6,466 nucleotides of DNA. It comes from a virus. Its lineage: Duplodnaviria > Heunggongvirae > Uroviricota > Caudoviricetes. Positions 1 through 6,466 of this stretch are shown in pieces. The stretch lies in IMG/VR virus record IMGVR_UViG_2606217106_000014, positions 1-6,466 of that record; one strand, 5' to 3'. The position numbers and the translations under genes were made by a program. The notes under the pieces are model-generated. The model saw nothing but the letters and a program-made list of their open reading frames with translations, made no database searches and was not told the DNA's origin. The stretch's first letter is position 1; every line of letters starts with the position of its first letter.

Positions 1-328
1 CACAAGCAACTGATAATGCCCCCGGAGCAGGAGCATCTGTAGCACAGCGCGGGGTGTCGATAAGTTCCACTGGAACCAGAGTCGGAGAGGCCGGAAAAGA
101 TTGTGATACTGTAGGGCCTACAATAGTTGGAGGCATTCTACGAGAAATACGTCCTTCTCTTTGCCAGAGGCGTAGCCATTTAAAAATCAGGTTGTTATCA
201 ACGCCATGTTCCCGGGCCAGTTGTGCAACATTGGCATTTGGTTTCGAAGCCAGTTCAACCATATGAAGTTTAAATTCATTAGAAAATATCCGGCGGGTTC
301 CGGAGCGCCAGTCTGTAGGTTTATCCAT
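1..328 (-). CDS. IS transposase OrfA-like helix-turn-helix protein, N-terminal part (gene continues past window start)
   Basis: Not in the ORF track because it has no stop in the window. Reverse-strand translation from ATG (complement of 326-328) gives MDKPTDWRSGTRRIFSNEFKLHMVELASKPNANVAQLAREHGVDNNLIFKWLRLWQREGR..., open to position 1. The pattern FSxEFK...VAQLAREHGV..NLIFKWLR is typical of IS OrfA HTH domains. GGAG lies 8 nt upstream on the minus strand. Confidence 0.6.
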   Translation of the reverse strand, partial: MDKPTDWRSGTRRIFSNEFKLHMVELASKPNANVAQLAREHGVDNNLIFKWLRLWQREGRISRRMPPTIVGPTVSQSFPASPTLVPVELIDTPRCATDAPAPGALSVAC

Positions 329-341
329 CAATAGAACTCCG

Positions 342-368
342 TCTAATTTAGAAGGAGCTCTAATTTAG
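342..368. repeat. Two exact 10-bp direct repeats TCTAATTTAG (342-351 and 359-368) separated by 7 bp
   Basis: Read directly from the sequence. They lie between the OrfA start and the putative IS terminus, so they may be subterminal transposase-binding repeats. Confidence 0.5.
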
Positions 369-473
369 TCTGCAAGGAGCAGGTGTTACAGACGGCATTG
401 GCTTTACGCTTACCTTACTCTGAACGCCCACCGCGTCCGTCCCGCACATTCCAGCAACGCATCTGGAGGTAAC

Positions 474-1520
474 GTGCGGGTATTACTTCGACCTGTTCTG
501 GTACCGGAACTCGGGCTGGTGATCGTTAAGCCGGGCCGTGAATCCATGCCGGTATTCCACAATACCCGGGTACTGGTGGAGCCGGAACCGAAAAGCATGC
601 GTAATCTGCCGTCCGGGGTCGTTCCTGCCGTTCGCCAGCCGCTGGCGGAGGATAAATCATTACTGCCATTTTTCAGCGACGAACGAGTGATTCGTGCTGC
701 TGGTGGCGCTGGCGCATTGTCTGACTGGTTACTGCGCCATGTTAAATCCTGCCAGTGGCCACACGGCGATTATCACCACAGTGAAACCGTCATTCACCGT
801 TATGGTACCGGCGCAATGGTGTTGTGCTGGCACTGCGACAACCAGCTGCGCGACCAGACCTCCGAATCACTCGGGCAACTTGCTCACCAAAACCTGTCTG
901 CATGGATGATTGACGTCATACGCCATGCAATGAATGGCTCGCAGGAACGGGAATTATCGCTGGCTGAATTATCCTGGTGGGCGGTCCGCAATCAGGTGGC
1001 GGACGCGCTACCGGAAGCGGTATTACGTCGTTCGCTGGGGTTGCGTGCGGAAAAAATCCGCTCAATGTACCGTGAAAGCGACATCGTACCGGGAGAGCAG
1101 ACCGCCACCAGCATACTGAAGCAGCGCACAAAAAATCTTGCGCCGCTGCCTCACGCCCACCAGCAAACCCCGCCACAGGAAAAGACGGTGGTCAGCATTG
1201 CTGTTGATCCGGAGTCTCCGGAATCTTTAATGAAGCGACCTAAACGTCGCCGTTGGGTAAATGAGAAATATACGCGCTGGGTAAAGACACAGCCGTGTGC
1301 GTGTTGTGGTAAGCCAGCCGACGATCCCCATCACCTGATTGGTCATGGTCAGGGCGGAATAGGGACAAAAGCCCACGATATTTTCACGCTACCGTTGTGT
1401 CGGGAGCATCACAACGAACTTCATGCTGATCCGCTGGCATTTGAAGAAAAGCATGGTTCCCAGATTGATTTAATTTTTCGTTTTCTTGATCGCGCCTTTG
1501 CAACCGGCGTGCTCGGGTAA
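474..1520 (+). CDS. DUF968-family prophage protein (YdfU-like) with C-terminal Cys/His HNH-like motif
   Basis: 348-aa ORF with GTG start preceded by GGAGG (465-469). C-terminus CACCGKPADDPHHLIGHGQGGIGTKAHDIFTLPLCREHHNELH has CxxC...HH...C..HH..H spacing resembling an HNH/zinc-finger nuclease fold. Position immediately upstream of rusA and Q matches lambdoid nin regions. Confidence 0.8.
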   Translation: MRVLLRPVLVPELGLVIVKPGRESMPVFHNTRVLVEPEPKSMRNLPSGVVPAVRQPLAEDKSLLPFFSDERVIRAAGGAGALSDWLLRHVKSCQWPHGDYHHSETVIHRYGTGAMVLCWHCDNQLRDQTSESLGQLAHQNLSAWMIDVIRHAMNGSQERELSLAELSWWAVRNQVADALPEAVLRRSLGLRAEKIRSMYRESDIVPGEQTATSILKQRTKNLAPLPHAHQQTPPQEKTVVSIAVDPESPESLMKRPKRRRWVNEKYTRWVKTQPCACCGKPADDPHHLIGHGQGGIGTKAHDIFTLPLCREHHNELHADPLAFEEKHGSQIDLIFRFLDRAFATGVLG

Positions 1521-1532
1521 AAGAGGTTACTG

Positions 1533-1907
1533 ATGCGTATAGAGTTTGTTTTGCCTTACCCGCCGACGGTGAACACCTACTGGCGTCGTCGTGGCAGCAC
1601 ATATTTTGTATCAAAAGCCGGTGAGCGTTATCGCCGGGATGTGGCACTTATTGTCCGCCAGCAGCGGCTGAAATTAAACCTGTCCGGAAGGCTGGCAATA
1701 AAAATTACTGCAGAGCCACCGGATAAGCGCCGTCGTGACCTGGACAATATTCTGAAAGCACCACTGGATGCACTGACGCATGCGGGGCTTCTCATAGACG
1801 ACGAGCAGTTTGATGAAATCAATATTGTGCGCGGTCAGGTCGTTCCCGGTGGGCGGTTGGGCGTGAAAATTTACGAAATAATGCATGACGGGCAGGTCAA
1901 AAAATGA
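1533..1907 (+). CDS. rusA: RusA-family Holliday junction resolvase (crossover junction endodeoxyribonuclease)
   Basis: 124-aa ORF with RBS AAGAGG (1521-1526). PPDKRRRDLDNILKAPLDALTHAGLLIDDEQ matches the RusA catalytic core of E. coli RusA ([30 protein letters not shown]), as recalled. Confidence 0.9.
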   Translation: MRIEFVLPYPPTVNTYWRRRGSTYFVSKAGERYRRDVALIVRQQRLKLNLSGRLAIKITAEPPDKRRRDLDNILKAPLDALTHAGLLIDDEQFDEINIVRGQVVPGGRLGVKIYEIMHDGQVKK

Positions 1908-2725
1908 AGCTGGAAGATTTACCGAAATACTATTCCCCGAAATCGCCTGGCCTGACCGATGCGTCCGCCTCGACATCAAAAGATGCGCTGAGTATCACTG
2001 ATGTGATGGCCGCGCAGGGCATGACACAAAATCGGGCTGAGATGGGTTTTTCTGCGTTCCTTAGGAAAATGGGCATTAGTATGAATGACAGAGAGCGGGC
2101 AACAGAATTGCTGACAGAATATGCACTCAGTCGGTGTGATCGCGTGGCGGCGTTAAGAAAACTCCCGGCAGAAATAAAACCGGTAGTGATGCGCATTATG
2201 GCTTCGTACGCTTTTGAGGATTATGCCCGCAGCGCAGCGAGTAAAAAGCAGTGCCCTTGTTGCTATGGGGAAAAATTTATTGAAAGCGTAGTTTTTACAA
2301 ACAAGGTCCAGTATCCGGATGGTAAGCCGCCGGTATGGGCAAAGTGTACGAAAGGTGTGTATCCGTCTTACTGGGAAGAATGGAAAAAAGTCAGGGAGGT
2401 GGTAAAAGTTGCCTGTCCGGAGTGTGGCGGAAAGGGTGAGGTTTCCACCGCCTGTAAGGATTGCCGTGGGCGTGGTGTCGCCATTCATCGTGAAGAGTCG
2501 GTAAAACGTGGTATGCCTGTTATCAGAGACTGCCAGCGTTGTGGTGGTCGTGGCTGTGAAAGACTACCATCAACGGAGGCATTTAATGCCATATGCAAAG
2601 TGACGAGTGCTATCACGCTTGATACGTGGAAAAAATCAGTGAAACGCTTTTACGATACGTTGGTGGTTCGGTTTGACATTGAAGAGGCATGGGCGGAGCG
2701 GCAGTTAAAGAGGGTAACGCGATAG
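1904..2725 (+). CDS. Q: Lambda-family late antiterminator Q with expanded CxxC zinc-binding region
   Basis: 273 aa. N-terminus (YYSPKSPGLTDASASTSKDALSITDVMAAQGM) and C-terminus (TWKKSVKRFYDTLVV...RVTR) align by eye with lambda Q. Four CxxC motifs, three of them CxxCxGxG (CPECGGKG, CKDCRGRG, CQRCGGRG). ATG overlaps the rusA stop (ATGA at 1904-1907). Confidence 0.85.
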   Translation: MKLEDLPKYYSPKSPGLTDASASTSKDALSITDVMAAQGMTQNRAEMGFSAFLRKMGISMNDRERATELLTEYALSRCDRVAALRKLPAEIKPVVMRIMASYAFEDYARSAASKKQCPCCYGEKFIESVVFTNKVQYPDGKPPVWAKCTKGVYPSYWEEWKKVREVVKVACPECGGKGEVSTACKDCRGRGVAIHREESVKRGMPVIRDCQRCGGRGCERLPSTEAFNAICKVTSAITLDTWKKSVKRFYDTLVVRFDIEEAWAERQLKRVTR

Positions 2726-2730
2726 TGTTG

Positions 2731-2775
2731 TTGATTTTTCCCGAATCTGTGGTAAATTTGCTCTAACGATGGGCG
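2731..2775 (+). promoter_or_regulatory. pR'-like late promoter with qut (Q-utilisation) site
   Basis: TTGATT (2731-2736), 16-bp spacer, extended -10 TGgTAAATT (2750-2758), then TGCTCTAACGATGGG. This closely resembles lambda pR' (TAAATTTGACTCAACGATGGG), including the AACGAT pause-inducing element (2765-2770). Sits directly downstream of Q. Confidence 0.7.
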
Positions 2776-2806
2776 TTTTATGCCTGACGTTATAAGATTT
2801 TTTACA

Positions 2807-2831
2807 CCCCGCCGCCTGGCGGGTTTTTTTA
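2807..2831 (+). terminator. tR'-like intrinsic terminator
   Basis: Stem CCCGCC (2808-2813) / GGCGGG (2818-2823), loop GCCT, then T7 (2824-2830). Predicts a short pR' transcript of about 65 nt. Confidence 0.75.
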
Positions 2832-2952
2832 TGACTGAAATCGCGTCAGTACAGTAAACGCGCTGGTGGCGGTGAATACCTGTCTTTCAGCTTGCTGGCT
2901 TTTTCGACAAGAGTTATTGGTGTGTCACGTTAACCGGAAAAGGGAAAAAGAC

Positions 2953-3150
2953 ATGCTAAAACAGCAGGATATGACAGAAACCGCCAGAGTAGTGTTTAAT
3001 GAATTAAGCGTTACCGAACCGGCGACAGTCGGGGAGATTGCACAGAATACTTACCTTTCACGCGAACGCTGCCAGTTAATACTGACCCAGCTGGTTATGG
3101 CGGGTCTGGCAGACTATCAGTTCGGTTGTTACAGACGCCTTCCGCAGTGA
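2953..3150 (+). CDS. Small hypothetical protein (65 aa), possible winged-helix DNA-binding protein
   Basis: ATG at 2953 preceded by AAAAGGGAAAAAGAC. Translation MLKQQDMTETARVVFNELSVTEPATVGEIAQNTYLSRERCQLILTQLVMAGLADYQ has an HTH-like segment (TVGEIAQNTYLSRERCQLIL). The track's upstream start at 2866 has no RBS. Function unknown. Confidence 0.45.
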   Translation: MLKQQDMTETARVVFNELSVTEPATVGEIAQNTYLSRERCQLILTQLVMAGLADYQFGCYRRLPQ

Positions 3151-3160
3151 AGGCTTTTTT
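3137..3160 (+). terminator. Intrinsic terminator overlapping the stop codon of the small ORF
   Basis: Stem GCCTTC (3137-3142) / GAAGGC (3149-3154), loop CGCAGT, then T6 (3155-3160) and ATTT. Confidence 0.65.
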
Positions 3161-3177
3161 ATTTGTGGTAAATGGGC

Positions 3178-3208
3178 GGCTGGTGGGTGTTAGGGGCACC
3201 CACCAGCC
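3178..3208. promoter_or_regulatory. Perfect 12-bp inverted repeat GGCTGGTGGGTG-N7-CACCCACCAGCC upstream of the methyltransferase
   Basis: Read directly. No T-run follows, so it is not a canonical terminator; could be an operator or RNA processing/stability element. It is preceded by TGTGGTAAAT (3164-3173), which duplicates the pR' -10 region (2748-2757). Confidence 0.4.
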
Positions 3209-3300
3209 ATCTGCTCATGCGTTGGGTTCACAAGCAAACCTCAGGCCCACTGCTTTGCGCAAAAGCAGAATGAGCCTATCAGAGACAGGCTTAATGATCC

Positions 3301-4350
3301 ATGCTTAATACTGTAAAAATATCCAGTTGTGAGTTAATCAACGCCGACTGCCTGGAATTTATCCGGTCGTTACCCGAAAATTCTGTTGACCTGATAGTCA
3401 CGGACCCGCCGTACTTTAAAGTGAAGCCTGAGGGCTGGGATAACCAGTGGAAGGGCGACGATGATTACCTGAAGTGGCTGGACCAGTGTCTGGCGCAGTT
3501 CTGGCGGGTGCTGAAACCTGCCGGAAGTCTTTACCTGTTCTGTGGTCATCGCCTGGCATCTGATATCGAAATCATGATGCGTGAACGCTTCAGTGTGCTG
3601 AACCATATTATCTGGGCGAAGCCGTCCGGACGCTGGAACGGATGCAACAAGGAAAGCCTGCGGGCGTATTTCCCCGCCACAGAGCGCATTCTGTTCGCGG
3701 AACATTATCAGGGGCCGTATCGTCCGAAAGATGCCGGGTATGCGGCGAAGGGCAGTGCACTGAAACAGCATGTGATGGCCCCGCTGATTTCTTACTTTCG
3801 TGATGCGCGCGCGGCCCTGGGGATAACGGCAAAACAGATTGCAGATGCCACAGGAAAGAAAAACATGGTGTCGCACTGGTTCAGTGCCAGTCAGTGGCAG
3901 TTGCCGAACGAAAGCGATTATCTGAAATTACAGGCGCTGTTTGCCCGGGTGGCAGAAGAGAAACATCAGCGCGGTGAACTGGAAAAGCCCCACCACCAGC
4001 TGGTGGATACGTATACGTCACTGAACCGGCAGTATGTGGAGCTGCAGAGTGAATATAAGCATCTGCGGCGGTATTTTGGTGTGACGGCGCAGGTGCCGTA
4101 CACGGATGTGTGGACACATAAACCGGTGCAGTTCTATCCCGGGAAACATCCGTGCGAAAAACCGGCAGAAATGCTGCAGCAGATAATCAGCGCAAGCAGT
4201 CGTCCGGGTGACCTGGTTGCAGATTTTTTTATGGGCTCAGGTTCAACGGTAAAGGCGGCTATGGCGCTTGGGCGTCGTGCAATTGGTGTTGAGCTGGAGA
4301 CCGGACGTTTTGAGCAGACAGTCAGGGAAGTTCAGGATTTAATCGTTTGA
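3301..4350 (+). CDS. Orphan DNA N6-adenine methyltransferase, beta class (N6_N4_Mtase type)
   Basis: 349 aa. Motif IV DPPY near the N-terminus (LIVTDPPYF) and motif I FxGxGS near the C-terminus (DFFMGSGSTVKAAMALGRRAIGVE), i.e. the permuted IV->TRD->I order of beta-class amino-MTases. No restriction endonuclease partner in the window. Confidence 0.9.
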   Translation: MLNTVKISSCELINADCLEFIRSLPENSVDLIVTDPPYFKVKPEGWDNQWKGDDDYLKWLDQCLAQFWRVLKPAGSLYLFCGHRLASDIEIMMRERFSVLNHIIWAKPSGRWNGCNKESLRAYFPATERILFAEHYQGPYRPKDAGYAAKGSALKQHVMAPLISYFRDARAALGITAKQIADATGKKNMVSHWFSASQWQLPNESDYLKLQALFARVAEEKHQRGELEKPHHQLVDTYTSLNRQYVELQSEYKHLRRYFGVTAQVPYTDVWTHKPVQFYPGKHPCEKPAEMLQQIISASSRPGDLVADFFMGSGSTVKAAMALGRRAIGVELETGRFEQTVREVQDLIV

Positions 4351-4399
4351 AACGGATGAGATTGCAGAATTAATTACGCACCATTATTATTCTGCTCCC

Positions 4400-4475
4400 G
4401 GCCCTTTAGCTCAGTGGTGAGAGCGAGCGACTCATAATCGCCAGGTCGCTGGTTCAAATCCAGCAAGGGCCACCA
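4400..4475 (+). tRNA. tRNA-Ile2 (anticodon CAU, ileX/ileZ-like; automated tools may call it Met)
   Basis: 76-nt cloverleaf: acceptor GGCCCTT/AAGGGCC, D-arm GCTC...GAGC, anticodon loop CTCATAA, T-arm GCTGG-TTCAAAT-CCAGC, discriminator A, encoded CCA. Near-identical in layout to E. coli ileX as recalled. Confidence 0.85.
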
Positions 4476-4482
4476 TCACATA

Positions 4483-4559
4483 CCGCCATTAGCTCATCAG
4501 GAAAGAGCGCCAGCCTTCGAAGCTGGTTGCGCGGAGTTCGGGTCCCCGAAGGCGGTCCA
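4483..4559 (+). tRNA. tRNA-Arg-like, apparent anticodon UCG, with non-canonical features
   Basis: D-arm GCTC...GAGC, anticodon stem CCAGC/GCTGG with loop CTTCGAA, T-loop TTCGGGT, 3' CCA. Acceptor CCGCCAT/AAGGCGG has one mismatch and starts with C; the T-stem has one mismatch. Boundaries +/- 2 nt. Confidence 0.6.
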
Positions 4560-4572
4560 TTATCTGTATCCT

Positions 4573-4649
4573 GCGTTGTTAGCTCAGCCGGACAGAGCAA
4601 TTGCCTTCTAAGCAATCGGTCACTGGTTCGAATACAGTAGAACGCGCCA
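4573..4649 (+). tRNA. tRNA-Arg (anticodon UCU)
   Basis: Acceptor GCGTTGT/AGAACGC (one mismatch), D-arm GCTC...GAGC, anticodon stem ATTGC/GCAAT with loop CTTCTAA, T-loop TTCGAAT, discriminator G, encoded CCA. Confidence 0.8.
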
Positions 4650-4664
4650 CACTTATTTTCCCTG

Positions 4665-4688
4665 GCTCGCTTTTGCGGGCTTTTTTTT
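4665..4688 (+). terminator. Intrinsic terminator downstream of the tRNA cluster
   Basis: Stem GCTCGC (4665-4670) / GCGGGC (4675-4680) with one G-U pair, loop TTTT, then T8 (4681-4688). Confidence 0.6.
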
Positions 4689-4900
4689 AAATGTCTCATA
4701 ATTCAGGCGGTTGACTGTTGTCTGGTTTGCGGGGAGTTTGTTAAAAGAAACTGGCATGGTGAATCCCCCTGTGCGGAGGGGCAATCAGCAACTGGTGTTT
4801 TGTCACCGACCCTTATCCTTTCTGTGCGGGTTCAGGTGCTGATACTGAACTCACCGGGAGGCACCCGGCACCATGCAATGGCACATAGCGCCACTCTCCA

Positions 4901-4925
4901 GCCCCTCTCCGGAGGGGCTTTCTTA
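4901..4925 (+). terminator. GC-rich hairpin with weak U-tract (terminator-like or RNA structural element)
   Basis: Perfect 8-bp stem AGCCCCTC (4901-4908) / GAGGGGCT (4913-4920), tetraloop TCCG, then TTCTT. Confidence 0.35.
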
Positions 4926-4930
4926 TGGAC

Positions 4931-4958
4931 AAAAAAATCCCGCGCTGGGAGACGCGGG
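4931..4958 (-). terminator. Minus-strand intrinsic terminator
   Basis: On the minus strand: stem CCCGCG (4958-4953) / CGCGGG (4944-4939), 8-nt loop, then A and T7 (4937-4931). Confidence 0.45.
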
Positions 4959-5152
4959 CGGCAAGGAATAAACAACAAAACGTGAAGTAATATTTCAGTT
5001 GGCGAATAATATCCGACAGTAATCACTCTGCGCAATAGCGCGGCCTTTTTCGTATTGCGGGCTGTTGTCTATCTTCTGCCATTGTCCTGTAACTTCCGGA
5101 CTTCAGCCCGCTCCTCATTTTACTCACAATATTATCCAGGCCGGGAGGATTC

Positions 5153-6466
5153 ATGGCATTTAAACACTATGACGTGGTCAGGGCGGCGTCGCCGTCAGAC
5201 CTTGCGGAGCGACTGACACAAAAACTGAAGGAAGGCTGGCAGCCGTTTGGCAGTCCTGTGGCTATCACGCCTTATACACTGATGCAGGCCATTGCCGCAG
5301 AGGGTGATGTGACCACGCCTGTGGTTGTGCCCGACACAGGGGCTGGTGGCTCTCCGGGAGTGGCTACCACTGAACCGGAGTATTACTACGTTATTCCCCA
5401 GGCCGGGCAGTCGAACGGTATGGCCTATGGTGAGGGGCTTCCTCTGCCGGAGACCTATGATCGCCCTGACTCCCGTATTAAGCAGCTGGCCCGTCGCAGC
5501 ACTGTGACGCCGGGTGGTGATACCTGTGCATACAATGACGTTATTCCGGCAGACCACTGTCTGCATGATGTTCAGGACATGAGCGCACTTAACCATCCTC
5601 ATGCAGACCTGAGTAAGGGCCAGTACGGGACTGTCGGTCAGGGGCTGCATATTGCCAAAAAACTGCTGCCTTATATCCCGCAGAATGCCGGGATTCTTCT
5701 GGTGCCCTGTTGCCGTGGCGGGTCTGGTTTAACCGTGGGTAATGACGGCACGTTCAGCGAAACGTCTGGCGCATCGGCAAATTCAGCCCGCTGGGGAGTG
5801 GGTAAACCGCTGTATCAGGATTTTCTCTTCCGTACAAAAGCGGCGCTGTCGAAGAACCCGAAAAACAGGCTTCTGGCCGTGGTATGGATGCAGGGGGAAA
5901 ATGATCTTGCGGACGGCAGTCAGCAGCACAGCGGCCTGTTTACCACTATGGTGCAGCAGTTCAGGGCTGATATGGCTGCATATTCTGCACAGTGTGTTGG
6001 CGGAAGTGCTGGCTCGGTGCCGTGGATTTGTGGTGACACCACGTATTACTGGAAGAATCTTAACGCCGATAAATATGAGGCGGTATATGGCGGTTACAAG
6101 GGCAGGGAAGCACAGAATATTTTCTTTGTTCCTTTTATGACGGATGAGAATGGACAGAGCACGCCAACGAATGCTCCGGCGGAAGACCCGGATATTGTGG
6201 CTGTCGGGTATTACGGTGCAGCATCCCGAACCCAGGGCAGTTTTGTTTCGACACAGCGTGACAGCCATTTCAGCTCATGGGCACGCAGGGGCGTCATTTC
6301 AGACCGTCTGGCCTCAGCTATTATGCTCCATGCAGGGCGCACGGCTGAATTGATGCGCGGGCAGACCGTGACACCACCGGATGAGAAGCCGTCACCTGAT
6401 ACACCATCAAAACCGTCCACGCCACCCGCAGACACCACGACGATGAGTACGCTATTTGCTTACCGG
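5153..6466 (+). CDS. nanS-p: NanS-p-type prophage sialate O-acetylesterase (DUF1737 N-domain + SASA/SGNH esterase domain), 5' partial - runs off window end
   Basis: Not in the ORF track because there is no stop in the window; 438 codons open from ATG 5153 (RBS GGGAGGA) to 6466. Translation MAFKHYDVVRAASPSDLAERLTQKLKEGWQPFGSPVAITPYTLMQAIAAEG... then YYYVIPQAGQSNGMAYGEG (GQSN catalytic-serine block), and a Pro/Thr-rich linker TPPDEKPSPDTPSKPSTPPADTTT near the window end. Confidence 0.85.
   Translation, partial: MAFKHYDVVRAASPSDLAERLTQKLKEGWQPFGSPVAITPYTLMQAIAAEGDVTTPVVVPDTGAGGSPGVATTEPEYYYVIPQAGQSNGMAYGEGLPLPETYDRPDSRIKQLARRSTVTPGGDTCAYNDVIPADHCLHDVQDMSALNHPHADLSKGQYGTVGQGLHIAKKLLPYIPQNAGILLVPCCRGGSGLTVGNDGTFSETSGASANSARWGVGKPLYQDFLFRTKAALSKNPKNRLLAVVWMQGENDLADGSQQHSGLFTTMVQQFRADMAAYSAQCVGGSAGSVPWICGDTTYYWKNLNADKYEAVYGGYKGREAQNIFFVPFMTDENGQSTPTNAPAEDPDIVAVGYYGAASRTQGSFVSTQRDSHFSSWARRGVISDRLASAIMLHAGRTAELMRGQTVTPPDEKPSPDTPSKPSTPPADTTTMSTLFAYR

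Follow-up and report, generated by a model that had tools for sequence, protein, structure and literature searches.

Background

The mom gene of phage Mu is a toxic DNA-modification gene that is expressed late only, and its control combines the Com protein and an mRNA leader hairpin, with a structured translation initiation region, in addition to control of transcription. Cleavage by RNase III remodels the downstream initiation region in the lambda N leader. DNA methyltransferases (MTases) of the M.EcoGII type methylate every accessible adenine and are widely used as reagents for chromatin and RNA footprinting. To our knowledge, there is no explanation so far for how prophages in about 40% of complete Escherichia coli genomes carry such an MTase gene safely. 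Here we analyse the region directly upstream of an MTase gene of this type in a stretch of 6,466 nucleotides from a virus of the Caudoviricetes (IMG/VR record IMGVR_UViG_2606217106_000014, positions 1 to 6,466; the whole stretch is called the window). An earlier note, made from the sequence alone, had described this region as a structured leader with a duplicated promoter core, a perfect inverted repeat and a second palindrome.

M.EcoGII is a non-specific adenine MTase which is deleterious if constitutive and is not expressed in the lysogen; the MTase of phage 1720a-02 is very similar to it, and a length of 349 amino acids (aa) is reported (PMC5778455). The small RNAs (sRNAs) described from the pR' 'moron' region, StxS, AgvB, AsxR and PasD/STnc100, are short RNAs transcribed separately, each ending at a terminator of its own, either at pR'-tR' or 3' of the moron (PMC4104026; 10.64898/2026.05.13.724894).

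In this study, we propose that positions 3165-3306 are probably the plus strand 5' leader RNA of the M.EcoGII-type MTase mRNA, which would act in cis after transcription and keep the toxic enzyme silent or low until late lytic growth. Judged by comparative sequence analysis, the palindromes flagged before are predicted hairpins of this structured mRNA leader of about 140 bases. The leader is an undescribed RNA motif; its general kind, the structured regulatory mRNA leader, is known, and its two-fold architecture and its client gene are unusual.

Results

The region upstream of the methyltransferase gene is one conserved unit

All three features flagged before were found in the sequence, with coordinates exact or at most one base off. 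The sequence TGTGGTAAAT stands at 2748-2757 and at 3164-3173, a match that extends to 12 of 13 bases (ATCTGTGGTAAAT vs ATTTGTGGTAAAT). The perfect inverted repeat is formed by GGCTGGTGGGTG (3178-3189) and CACCCACCAGCC (3197-3208), with a loop of 7 nt; it is far beyond chance, as arithmetic gives an expectation of about 0.003 for perfect inverted repeats of 12 bp with short loops in 6.5 kb. The second palindrome, CTGCTTTGCGCAAAAGCAG (3250-3268), is imperfect, with a 7-bp stem and a 5-nt loop, and has the perfect 10-mer TTTGCGCAAA inside. A fold of -72.4 kcal/mol was obtained for the 181-nt region (z = -3.8, i.e. 3.8 standard deviations better than shuffles).

Relatives were taken from eleven BLAST matches, from two IMG/VR pattern scans, one anchored on the left arm of the inverted repeat and the other 3' of the left arm to avoid bias, and from a one-genome-per-species scan with MTase protein alignment. 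A covariance model of 141 positions, R1, was built from 50 diverse leaders, and 59 sequences were realigned with it (alignment A5). In the window R1 covers 3165-3306 on the plus strand and ends just inside the MTase open reading frame (ORF); the score of 122.4 bits is high by construction, the window being in the seed alignment. Matches of 75-166 bits that directly precede the MTase ATG were found in 50 genomes, each representing a species, which cover about 20 genera of Enterobacterales, including Escherichia, Salmonella, Citrobacter, Klebsiella, Enterobacter, Kosakonia, Kluyvera, Buttiauxella, Mangrovibacter, Trabulsiella, Mixta, Rosenbergiella, Erwinia, Symbiopectobacterium, Lonsdalea, Chania, Yersinia and Ewingella. 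The MTase homologues 3' of the leader show 62-99% identity.

From TGTG up to the MTase ATG, the sequence is conserved as a single unit. Its pairwise identity is 82%, compared with 75% for the first 330 nt of the MTase coding sequence (CDS) and 45% for the upstream DNA. Upstream genes differ among the leader loci, and in some of them the leader directly follows pR'/tR'. The idea of a dedicated structured control region for the MTase is borne out, as the unit travels with MTase homologues across Enterobacterales and is conserved above the gene itself. At its 5' end lies the conserved motif UGUG plus 2-5 purine-rich bases (3164-3171, plus strand), the core of what the earlier note took for a duplicated -10. 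The TGTG is near-invariant and its spacing to ATGGGC varies (TGTGGTAA, TGTGGTA, TGTGAAA, TGTGGAA, TGTGAGAA). At the other end nearly all members of the family have a GATC (Dam site, 3296-3299) directly 5' of the MTase AUG.

In E. coli, 221 bases around the feature are present in 2109 of 5426 complete genomes (about 40%), and the same bases occur in Stx2 phages, phiP27 and phage 1720a-02, the latter with 95.6% DNA identity over the leader and the MTase start. Strain 203740 has an identical segment, with no RefSeq annotation between the small upstream ORF and the MTase gene. The leader matched no known RNA family. Rfam 15 gave a single match to the window at E <= 1, a chance-level P26 on the minus strand (24 bits against a gathering threshold of 36); at gathering thresholds twenty related loci gave nothing on the leader, and the leader of locus L176 gave only noise at E <= 10. 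The open-access literature contained no described MTase leader. The known phage sRNAs AgvB, AsxR, Pas and STnc100 were considered as well and are located elsewhere.

A coding function of the leader is excluded because of one-base indels in relatives. A 60-aa ORF at 3126-3308 was rejected as small protein or leader peptide, since it is broken by such 1-nt indels. A peptide from the AUG at 3172 (33-codon frame, 3172-3270, MGGWWV..., with the tandem UGG in the Chi octamer described below) has no Shine-Dalgarno (SD) sequence and is not conserved. By hand translation the frame at this AUG reads MGGRR... with two AGA codons in Yersinia L224 and has four codons in Chania L200.

The MTase gene itself (3301-4350, plus strand, 349 aa) encodes a beta-class enzyme (N6_N4_Mtase; PF01555, E = 1.8e-44) with TDPPY and FFMGSGST motifs in the translation. 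By sequence it is assigned to the M.EcoGII/M.EcoGI family of non-specific adenine MTases, which is typified by an N-terminal DPPY and a C-terminal FxGxG motif and by the prophage enzymes of O104:H4 and phage 1720a-02. No SD sequence is visible before its AUG.

Two alternative predicted folds are conserved on the plus strand

Fold A is the RNAalifold consensus and consists of P1a, P1b, a bulge, helix C, P3 and P4, all on the plus strand. Hairpin P1 (3172-3218) has a lower stem, P1a, of AUGGGC (3172-3177) and GCUCAU (3213-3218), with the 4-nt bulge AUCU on the 3' side (3209-3212); its upper stem, P1b, is the flagged 12-bp inverted repeat (3178-3189/3197-3208, loop 3190-3196). The long-range helix C (3225-3300) pairs GGUUCA (3225-3230) with UGAUCC (3295-3300) and AAGC (3232-3235) with GCUU (3289-3292). 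P3 (3244-3250/3270-3276, GGCCCAC/(A)UGAGCC, a conserved C·A included) encloses hairpin P4 (3252-3256/3262-3266), which is the flagged second palindrome. Fold B consists of P0 (AUGGGC/GCCCA), P1b, P2, P4 and P5. The alternative helix P2 (3210-3238) is formed by UCUGCU (3210-3215) and AGCAAA (3233-3238) and has a conserved GGUCAC-type loop motif at 3225-3231, and the alternative hairpin P5 (3270-3294) is formed by (A)UGAGC and GCUUA(A), in this lineage by AGCCU (3273-3277) and AGGCU (3287-3291); both lie on the plus strand.

In alignment A5, 95.3% of the cells of fold A are standard pairs, against 26-40% with the partners slid by one to three columns, and 17 pairs are changed on both sides against 5.1 +/- 1.3 in shuffles. 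For fold B, 93.2% of the cells are paired and 16 pairs are changed on both sides. The two predicted folds are mutually exclusive and about equally supported by the alignment: P2 cannot coexist with P1a or with half of helix C, P5 is in competition with both P3 and helix C, and the energies of the forced folds lie only 0.7-5 kcal/mol apart in six species.

P1b is the best-supported helix, with 96% of cells paired and 9 of 13 pairs compensated on both sides. It is rewritten entirely, with the pairing kept, in Yersinia (L224, arms GGCAGAAGAGUG/CACUGCUUCUGCC), Lonsdalea (L201, GAUCGGAGAG/CUCUUCCGAUC), Chania (L200, GGCGGUUAG/CUAACCGCC) and Symbiopectobacterium (L199). P1a is paired in 99% of cells and every change is wobble-compatible. 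P2 is paired in 92.5% and is extended and compensated in L224 (UUCGCCUGU/ACAGGCGAA), L180 and L096. Its pair 3212/3236 is the clearest single covariation in the family: CG 30, AU 12, UA 10 and UG 5, with no unpaired cell among 57 sequences and one sequence gapped. Helix C, which covers positions -12 to -1 before the MTase AUG and also appears in the minimum-free-energy fold computed for the window sequence, is 91.7% paired with exchanges from G·U to A-U. P3 is 93.7% paired with three pairs changed on both sides. For P4 the value is 97.5%, Ewingella and Chania having UGCUG/CAGCA in place of UGCUUU/AAAGCA, and for P5 it is 91.2% with two pairs changed on both sides (AGCUU/AAGCU in L196, AGCAUA/UGUGCU in L189). 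A GGUCA/UGAUC pseudoknot with P2 is compatible with the data (95.9% paired), but changes only from G·U to A-U.

The pairing is strand-specific. There are 218 G·U cells against 27 A·C cells, and 95.3% of the cells are paired on the plus strand against 87.2% when read as minus. Pairing and strand specificity together indicate that the element is RNA and not a DNA operator. In close relatives drift is limited to the C/A-rich right arm of the inverted repeat and always consists of transitions that give G·U, with the G/U-rich left arm frozen; only the right arm drifts because RNA pairing on the plus strand tolerates G·U. Examples are CACCTGCCAGCC and CACCTGTCAGTC, for which the left arm has no matching change, so that the two-fold DNA symmetry is not conserved. 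In near-identical prophages the inverted repeat is thus conserved as an RNA hairpin and not as a DNA palindrome. An RNA or terminator on the minus strand was also considered; the terminator-like match at 3291-3273 is not conserved and the G·U counts favour the plus strand. The element has the marks of a structured cis-regulatory leader, namely a fixed position in the 5' untranslated region (UTR) of one gene family and strand-specific compensatory pairs.

Variant leaders were seen at several loci. In Xenorhabdus and Photorhabdus (L202-L228) a short form lies about 90 nt 5' of the MTase ATG; an outer stem GGUGAA...UUCACC surrounds a GGCUGGUG/CACCAGCC hairpin followed by GUGGCUUUCC, and the P2-P5 part is missing. 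A GUGAA:UUCGC pairing seen in this short form shows no covariation in the long form and was dismissed. Locus L096 has a partial leader (7419-7538, 45 bits; P1 and a compensated P2) 5' of non-MTase sequence, with a GAUCAC loop motif that could pair with a downstream GUGAUU. In Symbiopectobacterium L199 (1427-1616) the leader-MTase cassette lies about 750 nt 3' of isrK and C4 antisense RNA genes. As these belong to an immunity region of the P1/P7 type, the cassette is not limited to lambdoid Q/pR' contexts.

A terminator and a dispensable small gene precede the leader

An intrinsic terminator on the plus strand (3137-3163; stem GCCTTC/GAAGGC at 3137-3154, then T6) overlaps the stop codon of a 65-aa ORF and directly precedes the leader; the terminator scan found the GC-rich hairpin and U-tract at 3137-3160. 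The inverted repeat of P1b is not itself an intrinsic terminator, as it is followed by AUCUGCUCAUG and no U-tract. In the window-type contexts read, and likewise in the 20 contexts that lack the small gene and have various genes upstream, the leader is immediately preceded by a GC-rich and usually terminator-like hairpin.

The 65-aa ORF (2953-3150, plus strand) is winged-helix-like, with a weak TrmB match (18 bits against a cutoff of 25.6 bits). Homologues are found in 30 of 50 species loci, where they end about 20 nt before the leader, and are absent in the other 20; the ORF is therefore a frequent but dispensable neighbour. In the 60% of loci that have it, the protein may have an RNA- or DNA-binding role.

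Chi sites and module junctions

The Chi octamer GCTGGTGG occurs as an exact match on the plus strand at 3179-3186, inside the 5' arm of P1b, and on the minus strand at 3200-3207, inside the 3' arm. The minus strand copy is lineage-specific, most relatives having CACCTGCCAGCC, CACTCACCAGCC or similar at this position. The plus strand copy is kept in 111 of 122 leaders from unbiased IMG/VR sampling; in Yersinia, Lonsdalea, Symbiopectobacterium, Chania and Ewingella Chi is lost and the hairpin is kept by compensatory change. As distant genera lose Chi yet keep the hairpin, the conservation of the 140-nt unit cannot be due to Chi.

Chi is the commonest octamer in the window, with nine copies (starting at 699, 1105, 1157, 2862, 3179, 3200, 3993, 3999 and 5342) where 0.28 are expected from shuffles. 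A second back-to-back pair at 3993-4006 forms the perfect palindrome CCACCAGCTGGTGG inside the MTase coding region. The E. coli genome has on average about 0.2 Chi per kb and the related loci have 0.7-0.95. Among 80 oriented species loci, 253 Chi sites lie on the strand of the MTase and late genes and 65 on the other.

Homology to phages without the MTase (L002 PhiR5_1, L010 and nine IMG/VR copies) stops at 3189/3190, right after the left arm, and resumes near 4690 of the window in L002 and L010. In L003, L009 and L011 a 237-aa gene with a helix-turn-helix (HTH) domain replaces the MTase; the whole of P1 is kept and divergence begins near 3224. The sequence beyond about 3224 in these three has a consensus TATAAT. 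Going by the excess of Chi and these homology breaks, Chi may be active at the leader and mark a module junction.

Genomic context of the window

The window represents the region of late regulation in an Escherichia prophage that is lambdoid and Stx-phage-like. A DUF968 gene (474-1520), RusA (1533-1907) and the Q antiterminator (1904-2725, Pfam Antiterm) come first, followed by a lambda-like pR' within 2731-2770 (TTGATT-16-TGgTAAATT, then an AACGAT pause element at 2765-2770) and, 3' of it, tR' (2808-2831). Both the TGgTAAATT -10 and the AACGAT make this pR' closely like that of lambda. A short pR'-tR' transcript would presumably match the StxS-type sRNA of Stx phages. Three tRNA genes (4400-4649) lie 3' of the MTase, followed by a full-length STnc100 sRNA homologue (4725-4930; Rfam scan 143 bits, E = 1.3e-32) and an esterase gene; between the tRNAs and the esterase gene, the STnc100 homologue occupies the place of stx in Stx phages. 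The first tRNA (4400-4475) is called Met (CAT) by ARAGORN and tRNA-Ile (ileZ) in RefSeq and in phage records, and is presumably read as Ile after lysidine modification. The earlier note had also proposed an MTase-tRNA module. This does not extend beyond Escherichia: tRNAs were found 3' of the MTase in 0 of 45 non-Escherichia leader-MTase loci, which makes the unit terminator-leader-MTase and not MTase-tRNA.

Discussion

The toxicity of the enzyme and its silence in the lysogen are a motive for tight control (PMC5778455). In the arrangement that we propose, the terminator would stop transcription that is not antiterminated by Q, and only Q-modified polymerase would get past such a dedicated terminator to the MTase. 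Transcription of the leader, about 140 nt long, would then precede that of an MTase ORF without SD sequence. In fold A, the long P1a+P1b hairpin would form and AAGC/GGUCA would pair with GCUU/UGAUC, covering -12 to -1 before the AUG. In fold B, the bulge and GCU would pair with AGCNAA (P2), AUGGGC with GCCCA, and GUGAGC with GCUUAC, which would free the UGAUC beside the AUG. Fold A would thus be the closed and fold B the open state. The two exclusive folds suggest a conformational switch beside the start codon, and we infer that they interconvert and gate translation or stability. A candidate trigger is cleavage of the RNase III type at the asymmetric 4-nt bulge of the P1 hairpin of about 19 bp; this would dissolve P1a and leave P2 as a 5'-terminal hairpin. 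The observations that support a cis-acting leader are its conservation, plus strand specificity and linkage to the MTase, the covariation in P1b, P2, P3 and P4, and the preceding hairpin. It is possible, though rather unlikely, that the leader is a true molecular switch (a riboswitch or one triggered by a protein or an RNase) that senses a lytic-cycle signal or the methyl-donor status and then enables MTase translation.

Several points weigh against a leader with two regulatory folds. Both folds reuse the short words GCU, AGC and GGC, and some of the alternative pairings could be coincidental. P1a, P0 and most of P4 barely vary and are therefore uninformative. Alignment A5 was fitted to fold A, which biases the counts toward this fold, and the sequences are related, so that the shuffle controls overstate significance. 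Positions -12 to -7 are paired in both folds, and the ON/OFF logic is thus not clean; moreover, GGAUC replaces UGAUC in at least five leaders and breaks one pair of helix C. Finally, the MTase homologues of Xenorhabdus and Photorhabdus keep only a P1-like hairpin, and loci L170 and L183 have no leader.

Among the alternatives, the element could chiefly be a signal for processing or stability, with P1 as an RNase III/RNase E boundary which splits the MTase message from upstream late RNA and leaves protective hairpins, without any switching of folds. The geometry of P1 is conserved in length (6 bp, 4-nt 3' bulge, 12-13 bp) and resembles the R1.1-type sites of phage T7, the terminator is followed by an AU-rich stretch, and in L003, L009 and L011 P1 is kept before a different gene, that of the HTH-domain protein, with the rest of the leader replaced, which fits P1 as a separable module. 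This explanation leaves the conservation and covariation of P2, P3, P4, P5 and the AUG-flanking sequence unaccounted for, and we consider it unlikely. The inverted repeat might instead matter as DNA, back-to-back Chi sites shielding replicating or packaged phage DNA from RecBCD from both sides and serving as a recombination hotspot for the exchange of late modules. Chi on each strand of the repeat, the second back-to-back pair, the excess and strand bias of Chi in the window and in related loci, the homology that ends exactly at 3189 in MTase-less phages and the divergence of the HTH-module phages near 3224 all speak for it. Nevertheless, most relatives lack the minus strand Chi, the plus strand Chi is gone from 11 of 122 unbiased copies and from five distant genera that keep the hairpin, and selection on the RNA would in any case be expected to freeze a 5' arm that is rich in G and U; a primary role as Chi DNA is accordingly quite improbable.

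Even less can be said for the model of the earlier note, in which TGTGGTAAAT serves as an internal promoter of the extended -10 kind or as a second site of Q loading, and the 65-aa HTH protein binds the inverted repeats as DNA operators. It draws on the 12/13 match to the -10 region of pR', on TGTGAAAAT, which resembles an extended -10 in one clade, and on the small winged-HTH gene directly upstream in 30 of 50 species. The repeated 10-mer itself is not significant and does not exceed chance: by arithmetic, 6.5 kb of random sequence should contain about 20 pairs of exact 10-mer repeats, 10 of 200 shuffles had two or more copies of the motif at up to one mismatch, and 2600-3400 alone holds six comparable short repeat families. 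A scan of 2600-3500 gave no sigma-70-like site, the best hexamer, TAAATG, having a G at -7. The supposed -10 is not conserved either, since close relatives have a 1-bp deletion (TGTGGTAAT) and other clades have TGTGAAAAT, TGTGGAAAT or TGTGAAAT with variable spacing and no common register. Beyond the 12 of 13 shared bases, the second copy has no counterpart of the pR' -35 hexamer or of AACGAT that a second Q-engagement element would call for. As to the operators, the right-arm transitions break the DNA palindrome and keep G·U pairs, so it is the RNA pairing that is conserved, and the putative binding protein is missing in 20 of 50 loci. Promoter and operator functions are therefore very improbable here. 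Least credible of all is a functionless leader that hitch-hikes with a recently spread MTase cassette. Lambdoid modules do spread horizontally and many copies are >95% identical, but the leader is more conserved than the adjoining CDS at 62-80% protein identity, and the changes that are present are compensatory, which already contradicts this explanation.

A cis-acting RNA leader, as preferred here, would have several consequences. Together, a terminator and a deeply conserved leader with two folds would provide a concrete and testable answer to the question of how the MTase is carried safely, and with the leader the late region of Stx-type phages gains an RNA motif that had not been described. 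If the switch proposal were true, the leader would represent a new class of regulatory RNA, one that specifically serves a toxic DNA-modification enzyme of phages. The enrichment of Chi bears on module exchange between lambdoid prophages and on evasion of RecBCD.

With known systems the leader shares some traits and differs in others. Chi is an 8-bp DNA signal, and the likeness lies in the exact octamer on each strand of the inverted repeat; what is conserved here is a 140-nt structure at the RNA level that survives the loss of Chi in distant genera. StxS, AgvB, AsxR and PasD/STnc100 belong to the same Stx-type lambdoid prophage neighbourhood, and STnc100 is in the window at 4725-4930, but none of them overlaps 3165-3306 and their Rfam models do not match the leader. 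Like riboswitch-type leaders, the element is a conserved 5' UTR with several helices that show covariation, with bases that are conserved though unpaired, and with alternative pairings in which strands are shared; unlike them, it has no terminator/anti-terminator pair, no SD sequence to sequester and no Rfam match. T7 R1.1-type sites and the lambda N leader share with P1 their place in a long polycistronic phage transcript and a hairpin of about 19 bp whose stem is broken by an asymmetric bulge; the motif of the window reaches far past P1, and its unpaired conservation is much above what RNase III hairpins need. The likeness to mom is that of a toxic phage DNA-modification gene with a structured translation initiation region. 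There is no similarity in sequence or structure and no Com-like zinc-finger gene was noticed among the neighbouring genes read, and the leader of the window is much larger than that of mom, with about 140 nt, five or six helices and two competing folds.

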